Shown piece after piece: positions 24,693 to 36,888 of a DNA stretch of 38,076 bases. Location of the stretch: assembly GCA_037445395.1 (NCBI GenBank), contig JBBIKR010000027.1:1-38076 (forward strand), read 5' to 3'. A model generated the notes under the pieces. It was not told where the DNA came from and made no database searches. It was given only the letters and a program-made list of their open reading frames with translations. The translations under genes and the position numbers were made by a program. The DNA comes from Thermoflexales bacterium. Lineage in GTDB: Bacteria > Chloroflexota > Anaerolineae > B4-G1 > DUEL01. Position 1 is the first letter of the stretch. The number at the start of each line of letters is the position of its first letter.

Positions 24693-25594
24693 CCGAAACG
24701 CACATCCGCTCCGGGTTCACCCGCGGTATCCTCATCTGTCTGGCGGGGACGGCCATCTGGTCCACGACCGCCATATTTATCGCCCATCTGAGCAACCATT
24801 ATCGGTTGCCGCCGCTGGTCCTGGCCTTCTGGCGCGACCTCTTCGTCGCACTGGGGCTGGCATTCGGGCTGAGCGCCATCCGGCCCTCCCTGCTGCGCAT
24901 TCCCCACCCCCGCCGCAACCTTGTCTTCTTTGTTGCCTACGGGTTCACCCTGGCCGTTTTCAACGCTCTGTGGACGACGTCCGTCGCCCTCAACGGCGCG
25001 GCGGTCGCCACGGTGCTGGTCTACAGTTCTCCTGCCTTCACGGCCCTGGCAGAGCGCCGCCTGTTTGGCGAGCGCTTCGGCCCAGCCCGTGTGGTGGCTC
25101 TGGTACTGAGTCTGGCGGGTTGTGTACTGGCCTCCGGCGCCTACGACCGGGATGCCTGGAGCGTGAACCCGCTGGGCATTGTCGTGGGGCTGAGCGGAGG
25201 GTGGGCATTTGCCGCCTACAGTCTCTTCGGCAAAGCGGCCCATCGTCGGGGAATTTCCCCCTGGACCGCCACTTTCGGTGCATTCACGACGGCGACCGCT
25301 TTCCTGCTCCTCCTGCAACACAGGGCCACCCTTTTCTGGCTGGGCCCTCAGGTGAGCGGGTGGGCCCTTCTGACAACCCTGGCGCTGGTACCGACCATCG
25401 GGGGGTACGGCCTGTACACCGTCAGCCTGGCCTACCTTCCCGCCGCCGTCGCCAACATCATCGTCACCCTGGAGCCGGTGATGACGGGCATGATGGCGTA
25501 CCTCATCCTGGGGGAACAGATGACTTCCGTCCAGTTGCTGGGCGGCGGGTTAATCCTGACCGGCGTCTTTCTGCTCCAGGGAGAGCGCCGGTGA
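24689..25594 (+). CDS. EamA/DMT-family transporter
   Basis: 301 aa with about 10 TM segments in two EamA-like halves. GTG start overlaps the upstream stop (GTGA). Confidence 0.85.
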   Translation: MTETHIRSGFTRGILICLAGTAIWSTTAIFIAHLSNHYRLPPLVLAFWRDLFVALGLAFGLSAIRPSLLRIPHPRRNLVFFVAYGFTLAVFNALWTTSVALNGAAVATVLVYSSPAFTALAERRLFGERFGPARVVALVLSLAGCVLASGAYDRDAWSVNPLGIVVGLSGGWAFAAYSLFGKAAHRRGISPWTATFGAFTTATAFLLLLQHRATLFWLGPQVSGWALLTTLALVPTIGGYGLYTVSLAYLPAAVANIIVTLEPVMTGMMAYLILGEQMTSVQLLGGGLILTGVFLLQGERR

Positions 25595-25689
25595 AGGCTC
25601 CTTTCTGGCCCACATGGGGTGAATTGCTGCGCAAGCCCCCCTTATGAACCAGGGCCTTTCAAAGAATTTACCATTCGCCTGCCCTACAC

Positions 25690-25785
25690 CCCTCACCCCA
25701 TCCCCTGCCCCCAGGTTCATCAAAAACTCTGAATCATTCGTGCCCCTCTCCCACCCGCCTTCGGCGGTGGGCGAGGGGAGGGGGA
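25690..25785 (-). repeat. About 95-bp hairpin-containing intergenic repeat, copy 2 (inverted relative to copy 1)
   Basis: See 25-118. It is flanked by further short inverted segments (cagggcctttcaaag at about 25650, ctttgaagagccctg at about 25831). Confidence 0.75.
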
Positions 25786-25855
25786 AGATAGGGAGGTGAG
25801 GGGTGGAAGCCAATTCATTTGCGTGAAAACTTTGAAGAGCCCTGCTTATGAACGC

Positions 25856-25884
25856 TTGCCAGTTTTCCGTGTTCAGGGTATACT
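25856..25884 (+). promoter_or_regulatory. Near-consensus sigma70 promoter upstream of yedE
   Basis: TTGCCA (25856-25861), 17 nt spacer, TATACT (25879-25884). It stands out in GC-rich sequence. Confidence 0.6.
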
Positions 25885-25890
25885 ATAGAC

Positions 25891-26163
25891 ACCTTCTCTG
25901 TCATCCTGGCATCAGCAAAGGGGTGAGAAATGACCCTCTGGTATCACCGCCGCACCTGATGGGAAGGTCGGGGCGCCGGTTGGCGCCCGCAGACCGCTGG
26001 GCTCATGTCCGGGGGCGGCGGGGATGCCGCACCCTGAGACCTCTACGGGCGCGTGCCTCCCGAGCCGCCGCCGGCGTGGGCCGACGGCGGCTTTTCGTTG
26101 CCCACGCCGTGCCCGGGCCGCCGCCCGGTCGCGTGGAGATTCCATCTCAAGGAGGTACGCACC
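25891..26163 (+). promoter_or_regulatory. Long, GC-rich, highly structured 5' leader of the yedE operon (candidate riboswitch or attenuator)
   Basis: Hairpins: GGGUGA-GAAA-UGACCC (25921-25936) and gggcgcc-GGUU-ggcgccc (25971-25988). Long-range pair ccgccgc (25947-53)/gcggcgg (26015-21). A terminator-like stem competes with a 9-bp alternative helix (26073-81/26100-08). Confidence 0.45.
26064..26095 (+). terminator. Terminator-like stem-loop plus U-tract inside the yedE leader (putative attenuator)
   Basis: gccgccg (26064-70) pairs with cggcggc (26085-91) and is followed by TTTT (26092-95). It is mutually exclusive with the helix ggcgtgggc/gcccacgcc. Confidence 0.4.
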
Positions 26164-27276
26164 ATGTCCGAACGTCTCACCCGTTTCTTCGCCTCGCGCT
26201 GGGGCATCCTCCTGGCCGGGGCGGTCATCGGTCTCCTGGCCCCGCTCCTGCAGAAGGCCGGCAACCCCACCAACATGGGCATCTGCGTGGCCTGCTTTGA
26301 GCGGGACATCGCCGGAGCCCTGGGCCTCCATCGGGTCGCCACCGTCCAGTACATCCGGCCCGAGATCATCGCCTTCGTCCTGGGCTCCCTGATCGCCGCT
26401 CTCCTCTTCCGGGAGTTCAAGCCCCGCGCCGGTTCCGCCCCCATCGTCCGCTTCCTCCTGGGCATGTTCGCCATGATCGGCGCCCTGGTCTTCCTGGGGT
26501 GCCCCTGGCGGGCCCTCCTGCGGCTGGCGGGCGGAGACCTGAACGGCCTGGTGGGCACCGCCGGGCTGGTCGCCGGGATCGCCGTCGGCGTCTTCTTCCT
26601 GAAGCGGGGCTACTCCCTGGGCCGCAGCCGCCCGGCGCCGGCCGCCGTGGGCTGGATGATGCCCGCCATCATGCTGGGCCTCCTGCTCCTTCTCATCTTC
26701 CGCCCCCAGTTTACCAAAGACGGCCCCATCTTCTTCAGCGCCGAAGGGCCCGGCTCCAAACACGCCCCCATTCTCATCTCCCTGGCCGTGGGGCTGGTCA
26801 TCGGCTTCCTGGCCCAGCGCACCCGCTTCTGCACGATGGGCGCCTGGCGGGACGTCATCCTGATGGGGGATACCCACCTGATCACCGGGGTGGGCGCCCT
26901 CTTCGTGGTGGCGCTGATCACCAACCTGGCCCTGGGGCAGTTCAAACTGGGTTTCGCCGCCCAACCCGTGGCCCATTCCAGCCACCTCTGGAATTTCCTG
27001 GGGATGGCGCTGGCCGGGCTGGCCTTCCTCCTGGCTGGCGGCTGTCCGGGCCGTCAACTCTTCCTCTCCGGCGAGGGAGATGGCGATGCCGGTCTCTTCG
27101 TCCTGGGGATGATTTTCGGTGCGGGATTCGCCCACAACTGGGCCCTGGCCGGTGTCCCCGACAAACTGGCCGAGGGCGTGCTGACGGTGGGCGGGCCCGG
27201 CCCCTACGGACAGGCCGCCGTCATCATCGGGCTGGTCTTCTGCATCGTCCTGGGCTTCACGATGCGGGAAAAGTAA
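26164..27276 (+). CDS. yedE: YedE/FdhT-family putative selenium (sulfur) transporter
   Basis: ATG 26164 with GGAGG RBS. Polytopic protein with the family motif NMGICVACFERDIAG. Followed by a TusA-like gene and selD. Confidence 0.85.
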   Translation: MSERLTRFFASRWGILLAGAVIGLLAPLLQKAGNPTNMGICVACFERDIAGALGLHRVATVQYIRPEIIAFVLGSLIAALLFREFKPRAGSAPIVRFLLGMFAMIGALVFLGCPWRALLRLAGGDLNGLVGTAGLVAGIAVGVFFLKRGYSLGRSRPAPAAVGWMMPAIMLGLLLLLIFRPQFTKDGPIFFSAEGPGSKHAPILISLAVGLVIGFLAQRTRFCTMGAWRDVILMGDTHLITGVGALFVVALITNLALGQFKLGFAAQPVAHSSHLWNFLGMALAGLAFLLAGGCPGRQLFLSGEGDGDAGLFVLGMIFGAGFAHNWALAGVPDKLAEGVLTVGGPGPYGQAAVIIGLVFCIVLGFTMREK

Positions 27277-27311
27277 GACAACTGCTCGCAGTTGTCACAG
27301 GAGGTGGAATC

Positions 27312-27521
27312 ATGGCGAAGGTCGTAGACGCACGGGGCCTCTCCTGCCCCCAGCCGGTCATCCTGGCCCGGCAGGCCATAGAGGAGGGGGAGTTCCCCAT
27401 TGAAGTTTGGGTGGATACCGTCACCTCCCGCGAAAATGTGCGCCGGGCTGCCCAGCGGGCCGGCCTCCAGGTGCAGGTGGAAGCGGTGGGGGACGAGTTT
27501 AAACTGACGTTGACGCGGTAA
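27312..27521 (+). CDS. TusA-family sulfur/selenium carrier protein (69 aa)
   Basis: MAKVVDARGLSCPQPVILARQAI... contains the CPxP active-site motif. GGAGGTG RBS. It is hidden in the ORF track inside the out-of-context ORF 26499-27521. Confidence 0.85.
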   Translation: MAKVVDARGLSCPQPVILARQAIEEGEFPIEVWVDTVTSRENVRRAAQRAGLQVQVEAVGDEFKLTLTR

Positions 27522-27530
27522 ACAGCACAC

Positions 27531-27575
27531 ACGGAATACGCGATACGGGACACGTGTCCGTATTGCGTATTCCGT
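27531..27575 (+). terminator. ACGGAATACG-type palindrome 10 nt after the tusA-like stop
   Basis: acggaatacgcgatacgggacac/gtgtccgtattgcgtattccgt has arms of about 22 nt with one bulge and one mismatch. Same family as 22503-22562. Confidence 0.6.
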
Positions 27576-27617
27576 CTTCTGCATCGTGTCAGCAGTTACG
27601 CGGTTGCGCATCGGCGA

Positions 27618-27707
27618 GGAGATTGCTTCGCGGCTTCGCCGCTCGCAATGACCCTTCCGAGCCCAGTGAGATGTCATTGCGAGGCACGAAGTGCCGAAGC
27701 AATCTCC
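27618..27707. repeat. Inverted pair of GGAGATTGCTTCG...CTCGCAATGAC units (LLRFARND-type repeat)
   Basis: 27618-27652 and 27673-27707 are reverse complements at their flanks, and each carries its own small internal hairpin. The same units occur at 31232-31268 and 31281-31317. Confidence 0.8.
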
Positions 27708-27748
27708 AGGTGCGTAAGTCCTTTGTGTGTCTTGTTTCGGGAGGAAAG

Positions 27749-28801
27749 ATGACCCGGCGGGATTTCACCCGGCTGACCCAGATTGCCTCCTGCGCGGGTT
27801 GAGCGGGGAAACTGGCCCCCGGGGCCCTGGCGCAGGTCCTGCGCCCCCTGCTGGATTCGCTGGAGGAAAGCGAGCGCGTCATCGTGGGGCTCGGCTCGCC
27901 CGACGATGCCGTCGTCTACCGGATGGAGAACGGCACCCTGCTGGTCGCCACGGCGGACTTCTTTGCGCCGGTGGTGGATGACGCCTACACCTACGGCGCC
28001 ATCGCCGCCGCCAACTCCATCAGCGACGTCTACGCCATGGGCGGGACGCCCTTCTTGGCCCTCAACCTGGCCGCCATCCCGTCCGACATGCCGCCGGAGA
28101 TTGCGGCGGAGATTTTCCGGGGCGGGATGGAGAAGGCGCGGGAGGCGGGCGTGGTCGTCGCCGGCGGGCACACGATGGACGATAAGGAGCCCAAGTACGG
28201 CATGGCCGTCATCGGGACGGTGGCCCCGGATCGGTTGTTGCTCAAGGGCGGCGCGCGGCCTGGGGAGCGCCTGGTGCTGACCAAACCCCTGGGCTCCGGC
28301 GTCATCAGCACGGCCTATAAGTCCGGACAGGCATCGCCGGAGGCGCTGGCGGAGGCTGTCCCCTGGATGCTCCGGCTGAACCGGGACGCGGTCCGGGCCG
28401 TCCACGCCACCTCTGCCCGCGGTGCCACCGACATCACGGGCTTCGGCCTCCTGGGCCACGCCACCGAGATGGCCCTGGCCGCGGGAGTCCGCTTCCGCAT
28501 TCGGGCCGACCGGGTCCCCATCCTGGAGGCCGCCCGCCCTCTGGCCGACCTCTGGCTCTTCCCTGGCGGGACGGCGGCCAACGAGATGCACTTCGGCCAG
28601 TGGGTGACCTTTGACCCCTCCATCCCGGAGGAAATCCAGATGCTCCTCTACGACGCGCAGACCAACGGTGGCATTCTGGCGGCCATCCCCGCCGCAGAGA
28701 TGGCGCGCTTCACCGAAGCGTGCCGGGCGCTGGACCAGCCTTTCTGGGAGATCGGGGAAGTCCTGGAGGGAGAGCCGGGGATAGAGGTGGAATCCTCCTG
28801 A
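27749..28801 (+). CDS. selD: Selenide, water dikinase (selenophosphate synthetase) SelD, with selenocysteine read from in-frame TGA 27800-27802
   Basis: ATG 27749 with GGAGGAAAG RBS. MTRRDFTRLTQIASCAG-U-AGKLAPGAL aligns by eye with E. coli SelD ...RLTQYSHGAG-C17-GCK20ISPKVL. Downstream motifs are DDAVVY, TADFFAPVVDD and AGGHT. The ORF-track pieces 27554-27802 and 27884-28801 share one frame. Confidence 0.88.
27800..27802 (+). other. UGA selenocysteine codon in selD
   Basis: In frame with both flanking ORF pieces and positioned at the catalytic Cys/Sec residue of SelD. Confidence 0.85.
27821..27849 (+). promoter_or_regulatory. Candidate bacterial SECIS stem-loop
   Basis: Lower stem 27821-24/27846-49, internal loop CCCU, upper stem 27829-34/27840-45, apical loop GGUCC (27835-39). 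The core GCGCA-GGUCC-UGCGC resembles E. coli fdhF UGCA-GGUC-UGCA. Confidence 0.6.
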
Positions 28802-28849
28802 GGTGTCAGGCATTCCGGAGGGCCTGGCCCGTTCCCCATCGGAGGTGGG

Positions 28850-30001
28850 ATGATCTACCTGGACAACGCGGCCACGTCCTGGCCCAAGCCGCCGCAGGTC
28901 CTGGCGGCGATGGCCCGTTTTCTGACCGAAGTGGGCGCCAATCCGGGCCGCTCCGGGCACCGGCTTTCCGTGGAGGCCGGGCGCATCGTCTACGCGGCGC
29001 GGGAGGCGGTGGCCGAACTCTTCCACGCCCCTGACCCGCTGCGGGTGGTCTTCGGAATGAATGCCACGGAGGGGCTCAATCTGGCCCTGCGGGGCCTCCT
29101 GCGCCCCGGCGACCACGTGGTCACCTCCAGCATGGAGCACAACTCGGTGATGCGGCCGCTGCGGGCCCTGGAGCGGGAGGGGGTCTCGGTGACCGTCGTC
29201 CCCTGCTCCCCGGAGGGCTTTCTGGACCCGCGCGCAGTCCTGGAAGCCCTCCGGCCCGAAACCCGCCTGGTCGTCCTCAACCATGCCTCCAACGTGACCG
29301 GGACTCTGCTGCCGGTGGCGGAGGTGGGCCGGGCCTTGCAACGGATGGGCGGCCCGCTGTTGCTGGTGGACGCGGCGCAGAGCGGAGGCGCCGTCCCCAT
29401 AGACATGCAGGCCGACGGCATTGACCTGCTGGCCTTCACCGGGCATAAGTCCCTCTACGGCCCGATGGGCACTGGCGGCCTCATCATCGGCGAGCGGGTC
29501 CCGCTGGAGGAGTTCCGCCCCCTCCTCCGGGGCGGGACGGGGAGCCGGTCGGAGTGGGAGGAGCAACCGGACTTCCTGCCGGATATGTGCGAGAGCGGCA
29601 CCCCCAACGGGGTGGGGCTGGCGGGGCTGGAGGCCGGGGTCCGCTGGGTGCTGGAGCAGGGCGTGGAGGCCATCCGCGCCCACGAGGTGGAACTCTCTCA
29701 GCACCTCTCCGATGGCCTGCGGGAAATCCCCGGCGTGACCGTCTATGGGCCGGACGACGCGCATCTCCGGACGGCGGTGGTCTCCTTCAACATTGCCGGG
29801 ATGGAGCTGTCGGAGGTGGGGATGCGGCTGGACGAGGAGTTCGGCATTATGTGCCGGGTGGGACTGCACTGTGCGCCGGCGGCCCACCGCACCATCGGAA
29901 CCTTCCCCGTCGGGACGGTCCGCTTCGCTCTGGGGGCCTTCAACACCCGGGAGGAGGTGGACGCCGCGCTGCGGGCCGTGGCGCGGCTGGCCCGGGAGTG
30001 A
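28850..30001 (+). CDS. Class-V aminotransferase-fold cysteine desulfurase / selenocysteine lyase-like enzyme
   Basis: 383 aa with MIYLDNAATSWPKP, the PLP-lysine motif FTGHKSLYGPMG and the active-site region RVGLHCAPAAH. GGAGGTG RBS. Confidence 0.85.
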   Translation: MIYLDNAATSWPKPPQVLAAMARFLTEVGANPGRSGHRLSVEAGRIVYAAREAVAELFHAPDPLRVVFGMNATEGLNLALRGLLRPGDHVVTSSMEHNSVMRPLRALEREGVSVTVVPCSPEGFLDPRAVLEALRPETRLVVLNHASNVTGTLLPVAEVGRALQRMGGPLLLVDAAQSGGAVPIDMQADGIDLLAFTGHKSLYGPMGTGGLIIGERVPLEEFRPLLRGGTGSRSEWEEQPDFLPDMCESGTPNGVGLAGLEAGVRWVLEQGVEAIRAHEVELSQHLSDGLREIPGVTVYGPDDAHLRTAVVSFNIAGMELSEVGMRLDEEFGIMCRVGLHCAPAAHRTIGTFPVGTVRFALGAFNTREEVDAALRAVARLARE

Positions 30002-30284: not shown

Positions 30285-30522
30285 GCGCCGATGGGAAATC
30301 GGCCTCAGGGGGCGCTTTTGCGCCAGACGTCAACCTGCGTTGATGCTTCCGGTCAGCGCAGGCCGACCGGGGGCTGGAAGCCCAGAGAGGACGACGCCTC
30401 GGGCGAAAGCCCCCTCGGGCCGAGAAGCCCCCTCGGCCTGAGGCCTCGGGGCCGAAGGATCGGGGCCGAGGGCTCGGCAGCCTGTCCCGAGCGAAGCGAG
30501 GGATGGCCCTTCAGTCGGCGCT
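30285..30522 (+). repeat. Same repeat family, copy B (long form with an internal CCTCGGGC-type low-complexity tract)
   Basis: Near-identical to A over about 90 nt. The 3' end ggcccttcagtcggcgct matches copy C. Confidence 0.8.
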
Positions 30523-30542
30523 ACGGTATACAGGAGGAGATT

Positions 30543-31136
30543 ATGAAGAAAATCGTGGATGCCCGGGGGCTACCCTGCCCCCAGCCGGTTCTGCTCACCC
30601 GCAATGCCCTGCAGGAAAGCGACACGGTGACCACCATCGTGGATAGCGATACTGCCCGCCACAACGTGGCCCGGATGGCCGAGAAGGCCGGGTGCACCGT
30701 GCAGGCCGAAGAGCGGGAAGACGGGGTGTACCTGCACATCCGCCGGGGCGAGGCGATGCCGGGGGCGGCTCCGGCCCCTCAGCCGCAACCGGCCGGCGGG
30801 CCGCTGGTCCTGGTCATCCCGTCGGAATTCATGGGCCGCGGCGAGCATGAAGAATTGGGGCAGATTCTGATGCGCGGTTTCCTGCACACCCTGAACGAGG
30901 TCAGCCCCCTGCCCGACGTCATCATCTTCTTCAACAGCGGGGTCAAACTGGTGGTGGAGGGGTCGCCCGTGCTGGAGGACCTGCGTACACTGGCGGATCA
31001 GGGGGTGCAGATTCTGGCCTGTGGCACCTGTCTGGGGTACTACGGCCTGAAGGAGAACGTCGCTATCGGCGAGGTGTCCAACATGTACACCATCGCCGAG
31101 ACGCTGTTGCAGGCGGGGAAAGTCGTTTCACTGTAG
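30543..31136 (+). CDS. yedF: YedF: selenium metabolism protein with an N-terminal TusA-like domain and a C-terminal DsrE-like domain
   Basis: MKKIVDARGLPCPQPVLL (CPxP) plus a C-terminal ...IIFFNSGVKL...ILACGTCLGYYGL... AGGAGGAG RBS. The ORF-track N-terminal extension from 30291 runs through repeats and I reject it. Confidence 0.85.
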   Translation: MKKIVDARGLPCPQPVLLTRNALQESDTVTTIVDSDTARHNVARMAEKAGCTVQAEEREDGVYLHIRRGEAMPGAAPAPQPQPAGGPLVLVIPSEFMGRGEHEELGQILMRGFLHTLNEVSPLPDVIIFFNSGVKLVVEGSPVLEDLRTLADQGVQILACGTCLGYYGLKENVAIGEVSNMYTIAETLLQAGKVVSL

Positions 31137-31400
31137 CACAGGATTTATCCCAATGCCACTAACATTTGGACGTGGGGCGGGCTTTTGAGCCTGCCGGCAG
31201 CCCGGAGAGGCGATCACGCAAAACTCACTCTGTCATTGCGAGCCGCCAAAGGCGGCGAAGCAATCTCCACAAGCCATTCAGGAGATTGCTTCGGGCGCTC
31301 TGCGCCCTCGCAATGACACGGAACAGGGCCATATCGCACTGCCCATAAAGTGAGTCTTGCGGAACCGCGAAAAGTTAGTGCCATTGGGATTTATCCTGTG
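31137..31400. repeat. 264-bp nested palindromic (MITE-like) element filling the convergent yedF/parB gap
   Basis: 27-bp terminal inverted repeats cacaggatttatcccaatgccactaac / gttagtgccattgggatttatcctgtg (3 mismatches). Inner inverted pairs are cgcaaaactcact/agtgagtcttgcg and the LLRFARND-type units 31232-31268/31281-31317. The right end overlaps the last 3 sense codons plus the stop codon of parB. Confidence 0.8.
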
Positions 31401-32239
31401 CGGTAATCCTGCACGAACCGCTGGTACAGTCCCTCCAGTTCCTCTTCTGAGTAGTAGTAGATGATAATCCGTCCCCCCTTCTTCCCCGGGCGGACCTGGA
31501 CGCGCGTCCCCAGCGCCTGCCGGAAACGGTCCTCCAGGGCCTGGATTTCGGGGGCGGCGGACCGGGCGGTCGGGCGCCGGGGCCGGGTCTGCAGAATCCG
31601 CCCCACCAGTTCCTCCGTCTGGCGGACGGTCAGGCCCTGGCGCAGCACCATGCGCAGCGCCGCGACCTGGGCCTCAGGGTCCTCCAGGGCCAGGAGCGCC
31701 CGGGCATGCCCCTCCCCGATGCGGCCGTTGAGGAGCGCTTCCTTGACCGCGTCGGTGGCTTTCAGCAGGCGCAGGGTGTTGGTGACGGCGACCCGGCTCT
31801 TGCCCACCCGCCGGGCCACCTCCTCGTGAGTCAGCCCGAATTCCTCAATCAGTTGCCGGTAGGCCCCCGCCTCCTCCAGCGGGTTCAGGTCCTTCCGCTG
31901 CAGGTTCTCTACCAGCGCCAGTTCCAGCGTCTGCTGGGGGGCCAGGTCCTTGACGATGACGGGCACCGTCGTCAGGCCGGCCAGTTTCGCCGCCCGCCAG
32001 CGCCGCTCCCCCGCCACCAACTGGTAACCGTCCCCATCCCGGACGACGATGAGCGGCTGGAGAACGCCGTGCGTCTGAATGGAAAGGGCCAGTTCCACCA
32101 GTTCGTCGTCCCGGATGAGCATACGGGGCTGATGGGGATTGGGGCGGATGTCCTCCACCGGCACCTCCAGGATGCCGGTCGCTTCCTCGCCGACGGGGAT
32201 CAGCGCTTCCAGCCCCTTGCCCAGGCCGAATTTACCCAT
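31391..32239 (-). CDS. parB: Chromosome partitioning protein ParB (Spo0J)
   Basis: MGKFGLGKGLEALIP N-terminus, ParB box ALVENLQRKDLNPLEEA, and an HTH. ATG 32239 with GGAGGTG RBS overlaps the parA stop by 8 nt. Confidence 0.93.
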   Translation of the reverse strand: MGKFGLGKGLEALIPVGEEATGILEVPVEDIRPNPHQPRMLIRDDELVELALSIQTHGVLQPLIVVRDGDGYQLVAGERRWRAAKLAGLTTVPVIVKDLAPQQTLELALVENLQRKDLNPLEEAGAYRQLIEEFGLTHEEVARRVGKSRVAVTNTLRLLKATDAVKEALLNGRIGEGHARALLALEDPEAQVAALRMVLRQGLTVRQTEELVGRILQTRPRRPTARSAAPEIQALEDRFRQALGTRVQVRPGKKGGRIIIYYYSEEELEGLYQRFVQDYRTG

Positions 32240-33026
32240 GTTCCACCTCCGCCGACGGCGCCCGTCCGTCACCGCTGAGCAGTTCCCAGGCCAGGGCCCG
32301 GTAGGCCAGGTCGCCTGGGGAACGGGGGGCGTAAGCCAGGATGGGGAGCCCGTGGCTGGGGGCCTCGCTCAGCCGGACGTTGCGCGGGATGACCGTCCGG
32401 AAGACCCGGTCTCCGAAATACCGCTGCACTTCCACCACCACCTGCTGGGAGAGATGGGTGCGGGAGTCAAACATCGTCATCACCAGGCCCCGCAGGCGCA
32501 GGTGAGGGTTCAGGGAACGGCGCACCAGGTCCAGCGTGCGCATCAGTTGAGTGAGTCCTTCCAGGGCCAGGTACTCGCACTGGATGGGGACGATGACGCC
32601 GCTTCTGGCGGCGACCAGCGCGTTGACGGTGAGGATGCCCAAACTGGGGGGGCAATCTATCAGGACGTAGTCGTAGCGGTCATCCAGGCCGGAGAGGGCC
32701 ATTTCCAGCCGCCGCTCCCGGGCCAGCATGGGGATCAGTTCCACCGTCGCGCCGGCCAGTTGGGCCGAACTGGGCACCAGGTCCAGCCGCACCCAGCGGG
32801 TCAGGGTGATGATCCCGTCCAGCGGCGCCTCGCGCACCAGGGCATCGTAGACCGTCGCCGGAAGCGCGGCGCGGTCCACCCCCAGGCTGACCGTCGCGTT
32901 GGCCTGGGGGTCCATATCCACCAGCAGGACCCGCTGGCCCCAGTGGGCCAGATAAGCCGCCAGATTGACGGCGGTCGTGGTCTTGCCCACGCCGCCCTTC
33001 TGGTTGGCGAAGGCGTAGATGATCAT
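32232..33026 (-). CDS. parA: ParA/Soj partition ATPase
   Basis: Deviant Walker A FANQKGGVGKTT and DCPPSLG. The ATG overlaps the PfkB stop (ATGA). Confidence 0.95.
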   Translation of the reverse strand: MIIYAFANQKGGVGKTTTAVNLAAYLAHWGQRVLLVDMDPQANATVSLGVDRAALPATVYDALVREAPLDGIITLTRWVRLDLVPSSAQLAGATVELIPMLARERRLEMALSGLDDRYDYVLIDCPPSLGILTVNALVAARSGVIVPIQCEYLALEGLTQLMRTLDLVRRSLNPHLRLRGLVMTMFDSRTHLSQQVVVEVQRYFGDRVFRTVIPRNVRLSEAPSHGLPILAYAPRSPGDLAYRALAWELLSGDGRAPSAEVEHG

Positions 33027-36081: not shown

Positions 36082-36888
36082 TTACCTCCGCCTCTTCCGC
36101 CGGGCGGGCTGGGACGGCCGCTCTTTGGGGCGTTCTGCCTCTTTCGGCCGTTCCGATTCCTTCGGTGCCTCCGCCGCGCCCGCCGGGACCGGCTGCGGCC
36201 TGGGCGTCACAAAGTACTGGAGCAGGGTAACCAGATTGGAGATGATGAAGTAAATGGAAAGCCCTGAGGCATAGGAGATGGAGATGAAGCCGAACATTAA
36301 CGGCATCATGATCAACATCTGCTGGTTCATCGCCCTGGACTGGGGGTCCGTGGAGGGCGGGGTCAAGATTTTCTGCGAGAGCCATGAAGTGACCACCACC
36401 AGGATGGGAAGGACGTAATACGGGTCCGGTTGCCCCAGGTCCATCCACAGGAATCGGCTCTGCAGAGGGATGAGGGAGGCCAGGCCGGGGATGAAGGGAT
36501 AGACGTTCTGGGAAAGGCGGACCAGGTCCAGCGGACTGACCGCCAGGGTGCGCATGATGGCCTGCCAGAGGCCGTAGAGGAGAGGTAGTTGGATCAGGAG
36601 GGGCAGGCACCCTCCCAGGGGATTCATGCCGGCCTCCCGGTAGAGTTTCATCTGCTCCTGGGCCAGTTTTTCCCGGTCATTCGCATACAGTTTCTGGAGT
36701 TTCGCCAGTTCCGGCTGCAGTTCCTGCATCCGGCGGGCCGATTGCTGCTGCTTCAACGTCAACGGCAGGACGGCCAGCCGCACCACCAGCGTGAGCGCGG
36801 TAATCGCCAGCACCGTCTGGTGGCCCAGGAGGCGGTAAAACAGCAGCAACAGGTTCACCATCGGGTTCAAAATCAGAAAATCCCACAT
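36082..36888 (-). CDS. yidC: Membrane protein insertase YidC (short Oxa1-type)
   Basis: 268 aa with LPLTLKQQQSARRMQELQPELAKLQKLY..., NPLGGCLPLLIQLPLLYGLW and a basic C-terminal tail. Confidence 0.93.
   Translation of the reverse strand: MWDFLILNPMVNLLLLFYRLLGHQTVLAITALTLVVRLAVLPLTLKQQQSARRMQELQPELAKLQKLYANDREKLAQEQMKLYREAGMNPLGGCLPLLIQLPLLYGLWQAIMRTLAVSPLDLVRLSQNVYPFIPGLASLIPLQSRFLWMDLGQPDPYYVLPILVVVTSWLSQKILTPPSTDPQSRAMNQQMLIMMPLMFGFISISYASGLSIYFIISNLVTLLQYFVTPRPQPVPAGAAEAPKESERPKEAERPKERPSQPARRKRRR

Follow-up and report, generated by a model that had tools for sequence, protein, structure and literature searches.

In the trpL, hisL and pheL attenuators, a short translated leader open reading frame (ORF) with its ribosome-binding site (RBS) is followed by overlapping anti-antiterminator, antiterminator and terminator helices, with an intrinsic terminator located before the first structural gene, and the position of the ribosome decides which helices form. 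In tnaC, tryptophan blocks release by release factor 2 (RF2) at UGA, the free amino acid being sensed in the ribosomal exit tunnel, and downstream termination is Rho-dependent. As for selenium, the E. coli selAB 5' untranslated region has a selenocysteine insertion sequence (SECIS)-like element, with negative feedback from the SelB complex charged with selenocysteine (Sec) (Thanbichler and Bock, as described in PMC13449736), and expression of fdhFSec in Treponema primitia shows selenium-dependent, translation-coupled transcription (PMC3892789). The present work concerns the leader of yedE, the first gene of a predicted selenium operon in the Thermoflexales bacterium assembly GCA_037445395.1 (contig JBBIKR010000027.1, positions 1 to 38,076, hereafter the window). 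In this leader, transcription is probably attenuated through the ribosome, with a selenocysteine UGA as the sensing codon; this reading is drawn from the DNA sequence and its homologues.

The layout described above for trpL, hisL and pheL, including the choice of helices by ribosome position, is also the one proposed for the yedE leader. Unlike these attenuators, which use a run of ordinary sense codons, the yedE leader would rely on a single UGA needing SelB and a SECIS; the ribosome would either stop at the sensor codon or go on into an extension that includes the antiterminator strand, and the quantity reported would be Sec-tRNASec or recoding capacity, hence selenium status. Tandem regulatory sense codons for an end-product amino acid were not found in the yedE leader, which has a single UGA and no codon run, and the leader is therefore a variant of the leader-peptide attenuator rather than a typical member. 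With tnaC it would share that events at the UGA ending a short leader peptide decide downstream transcription, and in both cases residues of the nascent peptide are conserved, whereas tnaC has neither a SECIS nor a read-through extension.

Like selAB, the yedE operon is a selenium-metabolism operon with a SECIS-type hairpin in its leader, and feedback of negative sign from Sec-charged SelB would be common to both. The selAB leader, as described in PMC13449736, is without UGA or leader ORF, and its hairpin lies 3 nt from the selA Shine-Dalgarno sequence, where bound SelB represses translation. The yedE-leader hairpin, in contrast, is about 165 nt upstream of the yedE Shine-Dalgarno sequence (it ends at 25995, against 26150); it comes after an in-frame UGA, and a terminator is coupled to it. 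The arrangement of a selAB-type operator, in which the hairpin abuts the Shine-Dalgarno sequence and no UGA is needed, is thus not that of the yedE leader. In T. primitia fdhFSec, selenium status is likewise read through UGA/SECIS decoding and alters downstream transcription, but this happens within a structural selenoprotein gene, through loss of coupling, and more selenium gives more transcript (PMC3892789). The yedE leader would be a dedicated device with a terminator/antiterminator switch and the opposite predicted sign. It combines features of leader-peptide attenuators, of the selAB operator and of fdhFSec coupling in a new arrangement. In full-text literature searches no earlier account of a UGA/SECIS leader was found. 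Leaders and attenuation are also absent from a 2026 review of prokaryotic selenoproteomes.

A conserved leader ORF with an in-frame UGA

The leader was compared across 160 yedE loci, to which species-representative genomes and metagenomes contributed 80 each. It is kept upstream of yedE in about 50-60 of them, nearly all from Chloroflexota. In BLASTN searches, distant loci aligned to it at 66-80% DNA identity over approximately positions 25942-26105, a degree of conservation that is uncommon in non-coding DNA. The 5' half of this leader is crossed by a small ORF with an in-frame UGA (25930-26037, Table 1), which was absent from the features listed in the original prediction, a reading of the window made from its letters. 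When the upstream regions were compared side by side, the homologous leaders displayed a Shine-Dalgarno sequence, of the GGAGG type, followed by an ORF of 7-12 codons ending in H-R-R-T-UGA, with the consensus x-L-(H/Y)-H-R-(R/Q)-(T/I) directly before the UGA.

Among 37 distinct sequences, His is encoded by CAC (16 times) or CAT (11 times), the first Arg by CGC, CGA, CGT or AGA, and the second Arg by CGC, CGT, CGA, CGG or AGG, unless it is swapped for Gln or Leu, while Thr uses all four of its codons or is replaced by Ile. The first positions of the codons preceding the UGA are invariant and the third positions variable. The use of both CGN and AGR codons for Arg argues for selection on the peptide, and the segment before the UGA appears to be translated sequence, not RNA alone. 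The UGA itself is invariant in every alignment and lies outside all predicted helices.

The frame continues after the UGA. Of 53 sensors, 51 keep it open over 20 codons or more, whereas each of the other two frames is open to that length in 33; conversely, closure within 20 codons was seen in 2/53 and 20/53, respectively (Fisher p ~9e-7, a value that is indicative only, the sequences being related). One exception is L090, which has an earlier in-frame stop. The resulting extension is 20-38 codons long, and sequence conservation within it is limited to the parts that RNA pairing constrains. At its end, a conserved "CCC-stop" is found in frame at 72, 75, 99 or 114 nt from the UGA, depending on the lineage. 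Since it stays in frame despite indels of -3, +24 and +39 nt, these indels are multiples of three. The identity of this second stop is interchangeable (UGA in 34, UAG in 11 and UAA in 8 of the 53 sensors), and it is always at least 22 nt before the terminator stem, so that a ribosome terminating there would not block the terminator.

Table 1. Features of the yedE leader and of the operon that it precedes in the window.
Feature	Position	Strand	Basis or remark
Sigma-70-like promoter TTGCCA-17-TATACT	25856-25884	+	10/12 consensus positions
Shine-Dalgarno-like AAAGGGGTGA of the leader ORF	25917-25926	+	read from sequence
Leader ORF, codons 1-9, MTLWYHRRT	25930-25956	+	homologue comparison
UGA, proposed Sec sensor codon	25957-25959	+	invariant in alignments
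Putative Sec-dependent extension, 25 codons, WEGRGAGWRPQTAGLMSGGGGDAAP	25960-26034	+	open frame
Second stop codon UGA ("CCC-TGA") closing the read-through product	26035-26037	+	24 nt before terminator stem
SECIS-like hairpin: lower stem 25966-69/25992-95; upper stem 25971-77/25982-88; loop GGUU 25978-81	25966-25995	+	covariation
P1 domain, proposed anti-antiterminator: 25939-56 with 26013-29, enclosing UGA, SECIS and a small hairpin	25939-26029	+	-57.9 kcal/mol, z = -3.49
Antiterminator 5' strand, wholly within the Sec-dependent extension	26000-26034	+	covariation
Antiterminator 3' strand: CCUCCC anti-Shine-Dalgarno-like motif 26056-61, terminator 5' arm, loop and first 3'-arm bases	26047-26082	+	covariation
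Intrinsic terminator: stem 26062-75/26080-93, loop GUGG, then UUUUCGUU	26062-26099	+	-27.1 kcal/mol, z = -3.93
P5 hairpin between terminator and yedE RBS: 26102-07/26131-36 enclosing 26113-18/26123-28	26102-26136	+	77.5% paired
yedE Shine-Dalgarno AGGAGG 26150-55 and ATG start 26164-66	26150-26166	+	read from sequence
Regulated operon (proposed) yedE-yedF-selD-NifS-like	26164-30001	+	
yedE	26164-27276	+	Pfam Sulf_transp; homologues named "YedE family putative selenium transporter"
yedF, TusA-type	27312-27521	+	
selD with in-frame Sec-UGA	27749-28801	+	
Class-V aminotransferase, NifS/Sec-lyase-like	28850-30001	+	

A SECIS-like hairpin follows the UGA

Directly 3' of the UGA, and with the frame continuing through it, lies a hairpin that has the geometry of a bacterial SECIS; SelB binding and Sec insertion are predicted from it. 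The upper stem is separated from the UGA by 11 nt, with the loop beginning 18 nt after the UGA, a spacing that is kept across group A leaders. These distances correspond to the geometry of the minimal E. coli fdhF element, an upper stem-loop 11 nt after the UGA, and the bSECISearch description gives 16-37 nt from UGA to apical loop.

The 7-bp upper stem, which the original prediction had listed as a GGUU hairpin, is paired in 100% of the cells of the alignment (22-24 sequences), with three pairs changed on both sides. The lower stem covaries as well (GGUC/GACC, GGCC/GGCC, CACCC/GGGUG and GGCUU/AAGCC). The loop is GGUU in most sequences; its position 2 is G in at least 90% of them, and position 3 is usually U, with G or C in some (AGGG, GGCC, GUCG). 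A bulged U of the E. coli type is not evident in the hairpin. RNAalifold applied to block 1 of the alignment recovered the SECIS hairpin and not P1.

The hairpin is similar to the SECIS elements of E. coli fdhF and of selD in the window, which also have an in-frame UGA, a hairpin about 11 nt downstream, a covarying stem and a continuing frame; an apical loop with G and U is shared in most of the leader sequences. It differs from those of selenoprotein genes in its host, a 35-codon leader without conserved protein sequence past the UGA.

Terminator and antiterminator are mutually exclusive and covary

A GC-rich stem followed by a U-run is present in all 24 aligned group-A leaders, about 90% paired and with compensatory changes. 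A stricter terminator scan did not flag this element (26062-26099). Its 5' arm and loop are also part of a second, larger structure. A segment immediately 3' of the SECIS forms pairs with the upper part of the terminator, loop included, over 8-13 positions (mostly 11-13) in 21 of the 24 leaders, with a mean z of -2.25. In the window, the corresponding antiterminator hairpin (26000-26082) has a folding energy of -62.1 kcal/mol (z = -4.26). On the unbiased MAFFT alignment, the antiterminator helix is 82.9% paired and shows double changes at 9 of its 11 pairs (29 cells); none of 500 shuffles was as good, and slid controls were 19-57% paired. The covariation extends to the terminator loop and its partner, with GUGU facing GCAYAC, AUGA facing CUCAU, CGAUGCAU facing AUGCAUC and AUAU facing GCAUAUG. 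Terminator and antiterminator, to both of which 26062-26082 belongs, are mutually exclusive, and both are supported by covariation. In all cases the antiterminator 5' strand is located between the UGA and the second stop.

The third structure, P1, would act as anti-antiterminator. Its per-sequence duplex z averages -2.35 over the 24 leaders. It includes the long-range pairing 25947-53/26015-21 noted in the original prediction, which proved to be the core of a 14-bp helix between 25939-56 and 26013-29.

A conserved CCUCC just 5' of the terminator (26056-26061) is complementary to the yedE Shine-Dalgarno sequence AGGAGG (26150-26155) and is buried in the antiterminator. This complementarity points to an additional level of control, exerted on translation. 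The P5 hairpin, which lies between the terminator and the yedE RBS, shows double changes at 3 pairs.

The original prediction had placed a terminator/antiterminator switch ahead of the selenium operon and had called for a search for covariation in related leaders. Conserved and covarying helices were indeed found upstream of yedE, all the listed leader features are present in the sequence, and the leader is long, structured and conserved, with a real switch. What had to be revised is the composition of the switch, the covarying antiterminator lying further upstream, at 26000-34/26047-82. The 9-bp helix 26073-81/26100-08 that had been put forward as the competitor of the terminator stem does exist, but it is 67% paired among the homologues, with 5 double-change cells against 5.3 in shuffles. 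It was rejected as antiterminator in view of this lack of covariation, and its 3' partner belongs to the covarying P5 hairpin instead. The GAAA-capped hairpin at 25921-36 does not stand as a functional element either: it consists of 4 bp and a mismatch, overlaps the Shine-Dalgarno sequence and AUG of the small ORF, and is not conserved.

Promoter and overall folding of the leader

The near-consensus promoter pointed out in the same prediction was the sole promoter-like match in the 2 kb between 25000 and 27000, where 0.1 would be expected from shuffles. Transcription would accordingly be predicted to start near 25891. Of 35 homologous leaders, 13 have a similar site between 55 and 135 nt upstream of the UGA, and the site of L002 is at the same distance as in the window. 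The entire 274-nt leader folds modestly better than shuffled sequences (z = -2.57).

The original prediction had recognised no known riboswitch class in the leader, and Rfam at gathering score gave 0 matches, both for the window and for 16 homologous loci. When 25550-26300 was scanned permissively (E up to 10), nothing meaningful was found within the leader. The only matches, all below threshold and judged spurious, were at an unrelated GC hairpin further upstream, at 25738-90 (some miRNA models, and Antizyme_FSE with 30 bits where the cutoff is 40).

Distribution of the sensor

A covariance model of 65 nt, spanning the ORF end, the UGA and the hairpin, gave about 42 matches at E < 0.01 in the 160 yedE loci. 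All of them share the strand of yedE, and nearly all precede it by 150-280 nt. A scan independent of sequence similarity, which asked for a Shine-Dalgarno sequence, a short ORF, TGA, a hairpin with G in its loop and an open extension, recovered 41 of 55 known leaders. The same anatomy was picked up in 6 of 97 additional loci, as against 0 of 97 controls that were reverse-complemented. The named hosts of the sensor are Anaerolineae, Caldilineae, Chloroflexia and Dehalococcoidia, with one extra match in a bin labelled Bacteroidia. In every sensor-bearing locus whose fetched flank includes selD (18 out of 18), this gene carries a stop at the Sec site, and these organisms therefore decode UGA as Sec.

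In a subgroup of five loci (L019, L036, L042, L094 and L102) the leader peptide is a different one, ending in F-x-F-I-UGA. The spacer and the antiterminator logic are retained, the loop is GGUC and the frame is open for 20-26 codons. In the Chloroflexia loci L056 (1386-1435) and L105 (359-423), the sensor precedes a NifS-like class-V aminotransferase gene that heads the selenium operon; in L056 a further sensor (approximately 2790-2830) lies before yedE, so that two are arranged in series.

Proposed mechanism

On the proposed reading, a transcript started at about 25891 would be loaded by a ribosome at the Shine-Dalgarno/AUG of the leader ORF (25930), which would read nine codons to the UGA at 25957. 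In selenium-replete cells, where SelB.GTP.Sec-tRNASec is present, Sec would be inserted and the ribosome would proceed over 25 further codons to the stop at 26035. In doing so it would unwind and cover the antiterminator 5' strand (26000-34), as a result of which the terminator (26062-93 and U-run) would form and transcription would stop before yedE. Selenium repletion would thus correspond to the off state. When Sec-tRNASec is scarce, the ribosome would wait or terminate at the UGA, with P1 already opened and the extension not entered. The antiterminator (26000-34/26047-82) could then sequester the 5' arm and loop of the terminator together with the CCUCC motif, which would otherwise be free to pair with the yedE Shine-Dalgarno sequence, and yedE, yedF, selD and the NifS-like gene would be transcribed and translated. 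In a leader that is not translated at all, P1 would hold part of the antiterminator strand and the terminator would form. The net logic would be a negative feedback, in which a shortage of Sec-tRNASec turns on the genes for selenium uptake and activation. The nascent HRRT peptide, which is conserved, may adjust how RF2 and SelB compete at the UGA.

A number of observations weigh against this mechanism. Since TGA was built into the search patterns and the covariance model, the UGA appears invariant in part through ascertainment. Individual sensors also depart from the scheme: L066 (approximately 2699-2744) has UAA at the position of the sensor UGA; L005 (2747-2810) reads UGA-GCG-UGA, with a second in-frame UGA one codon on, a 10-nt spacer and no clear start codon; in L014 the frame past the UGA is closed after one codon; L023 (approximately 2774-2838) and L091 read H-H-R-UGA-I-UGA, with an extra in-frame UGA two codons upstream and 17 nt from the hairpin; and L112 (1778-1840) is without in-frame start codon. 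On the structural side, the energies of the full 2:3 (lower antiterminator) duplex are not clearly better than those of GC-rich shuffles (mean z = -0.75), the clean 2:3 signal being confined to the top helix that includes the terminator loop. Neither of the two P1 registers tested for column covariation beat shuffles, because the register shifts between lineages and the core is invariant; the case for P1 is therefore one of complementarity. In Dehalococcoidia-type leaders the sensor is kept and the yedE Shine-Dalgarno/RBS appears to be sequestered, and constraint folding of these leaders revealed no clear switch. Finally, RF2 could quickly release the ribosome at the UGA, which makes the kinetics of the on state uncertain.

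The sensors of L066, L005 and L112 look decayed, and the terminator is intact in all three. These leaders may be constitutive or relic versions.

Alternative explanations

The hairpin could also serve as an operator. SelB.GTP.Sec-tRNASec, binding without decoding, would then stabilise P1 and the hairpin and favour the terminator, the small ORF being incidental. Such an operator would fit the SECIS-like character of the hairpin, its enclosure by P1 and the precedent of a SECIS-like regulatory element in a selenium-gene leader that is given in PMC13449736. It is nevertheless unlikely, and leaves unexplained the conserved Shine-Dalgarno sequence and start codon, the synonymous-codon variation before the UGA, the location of the UGA exactly 11 nt from the hairpin and the open frame to a conserved second stop. 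The peptide, conserved at the amino-acid level, might itself be the sensor. In that case the UGA, which is an RF2-specific stop, would be an ordinary stop codon, and the HRRT nascent peptide would respond to a small molecule or condition and block RF2 release, as the nascent peptides TnaC and SpeFL do, the stalled ribosome favouring the antiterminator. HRRT (25945-25956) loosely resembles the HIRRxxH motif of SpeFL, an ornithine-sensing arrest peptide, a likeness that may be coincidence. An arrest peptide is quite unlikely here: the subgroup with the very different F-x-F-I peptide keeps both UGA and hairpin, and the open frame past the UGA, the SECIS geometry and the position of the antiterminator strand inside the extension would all be unaccounted for.

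The anatomy of ORF, UGA and SECIS is that of a selenoprotein gene, and the 35-codon frame could in principle encode a functional selenopeptide co-transcribed with yedE, the downstream hairpins being a leaky terminator. The extension, however, varies from 20 to 38 codons without sequence conservation outside the RNA-pairing parts, and its nucleotides covary with the terminator loop, which indicates a constraint at the RNA rather than the protein level; a small selenoprotein gene is thus very unlikely. The original prediction had favoured a transcription-attenuating riboswitch or a protein- or tRNA-responsive leader. A metabolite riboswitch would have its P1/hairpin/junction domain bind a selenium- or sulfur-related ligand and control the terminator directly, and a three-way-junction-like domain does adjoin the terminator/antiterminator switch, with no known family matching it. 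Against this, the most conserved segment behaves as a coding sequence with Shine-Dalgarno sequence, start codon and invariant UGA, varying codon by codon; P1 is without covariation; the junction tolerates inserts of 24-39 nt, always in multiples of three; and the conserved single-stranded nucleotides are those of the UGA and of the GGU loop. A ligand-binding riboswitch is highly improbable on these grounds. The notion of a tRNA-responsive leader came close to the mark, except that the response would pass through translation of a Sec codon and not through direct tRNA binding.

The conserved ORF, UGA, hairpin and open frame, and the covarying, mutually exclusive terminator and antiterminator, are observed; on the attenuator reading the UGA would be decoded as Sec, and P1 and the HRRT peptide would have the roles outlined above.

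Gene context in the window

The window has a G+C content of about 67%, and its YedE shares 97% identity with the YedE encoded by a metagenome-assembled genome from Anaerolineae (Chloroflexota). In selD, the in-frame UGA (27800-02) occupies the catalytic position (SCAG*AGK), and the SelD of the window is therefore a selenoprotein; a Sec hairpin with the sequence GCGCA-GGUCC-UGCGC and loop GGUCC is located at about 27826-46. The selenium-donor enzyme is thus itself a selenoprotein, encoded inside the operon that the leader would control, which would make a bootstrapping loop.

The spacer between yedF and selD is filled by two long inverted repeats, at 27531-27575 (18-nt arms, 94% complementary) and 27618-27707 (35-nt arms, 83%). 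They look like a family of palindromic elements of the repetitive extragenic palindromic (REP) or miniature inverted-repeat transposable element (MITE) kind. An ORF at 30291-31136, past a gap after the selD and NifS-like genes, encodes a TusA-DsrE fusion ("long YedF" architecture), so that the locus holds both short and long YedF-type proteins. An arm of the second repeat is found again downstream of the TusA-DsrE gene, at 31248-31268 on the minus strand.

The upstream neighbour of the leader is an EamA-family transporter gene ending at 25594. Downstream of it is a perfect, very GC-rich, UUCG-capped hairpin (25738-25790), which is probably a terminator or repeat element of the upstream gene and outside the leader. 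Near the 3' end of the window, ParB (31391-32272) and YidC (60KD_IMP, 36082-36888) genes are present on the minus strand, and the region may consequently lie near a replication origin. A tRNA scan of the window gave zero tRNA genes, selC being therefore not in the window, and neither selA nor selB was found when further large reading frames of the window were scanned for Pfam domains.

Significance

Selenium sensing in bacteria is little understood, the only candidates in the literature searched being LysR-type regulators (PMC5322559), the selAB operator and fdhFSec coupling (PMC3892789). If the proposed reading is true, the yedE leader would offer a directly testable mechanism of selenium homeostasis, with a cis-regulatory sensor ahead of a predicted selenium transporter, and would provide functional evidence tying YedE and YedF to selenium supply. 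It would also be the first programmed recoding to serve as an attenuator sensor, and the motif could become a compact selenium- or Sec-responsive switch for engineering. The chances are slightly better than even that it represents a natural device, widespread in Chloroflexota, that has the efficiency of UGA-to-Sec recoding as its input and gauges the pool of SelB.Sec-tRNASec to set yedE-yedF-selD transcription. In some lineages the same device may also control translation. For the uncultured Chloroflexota, the motif is a searchable marker of selenium regulons.

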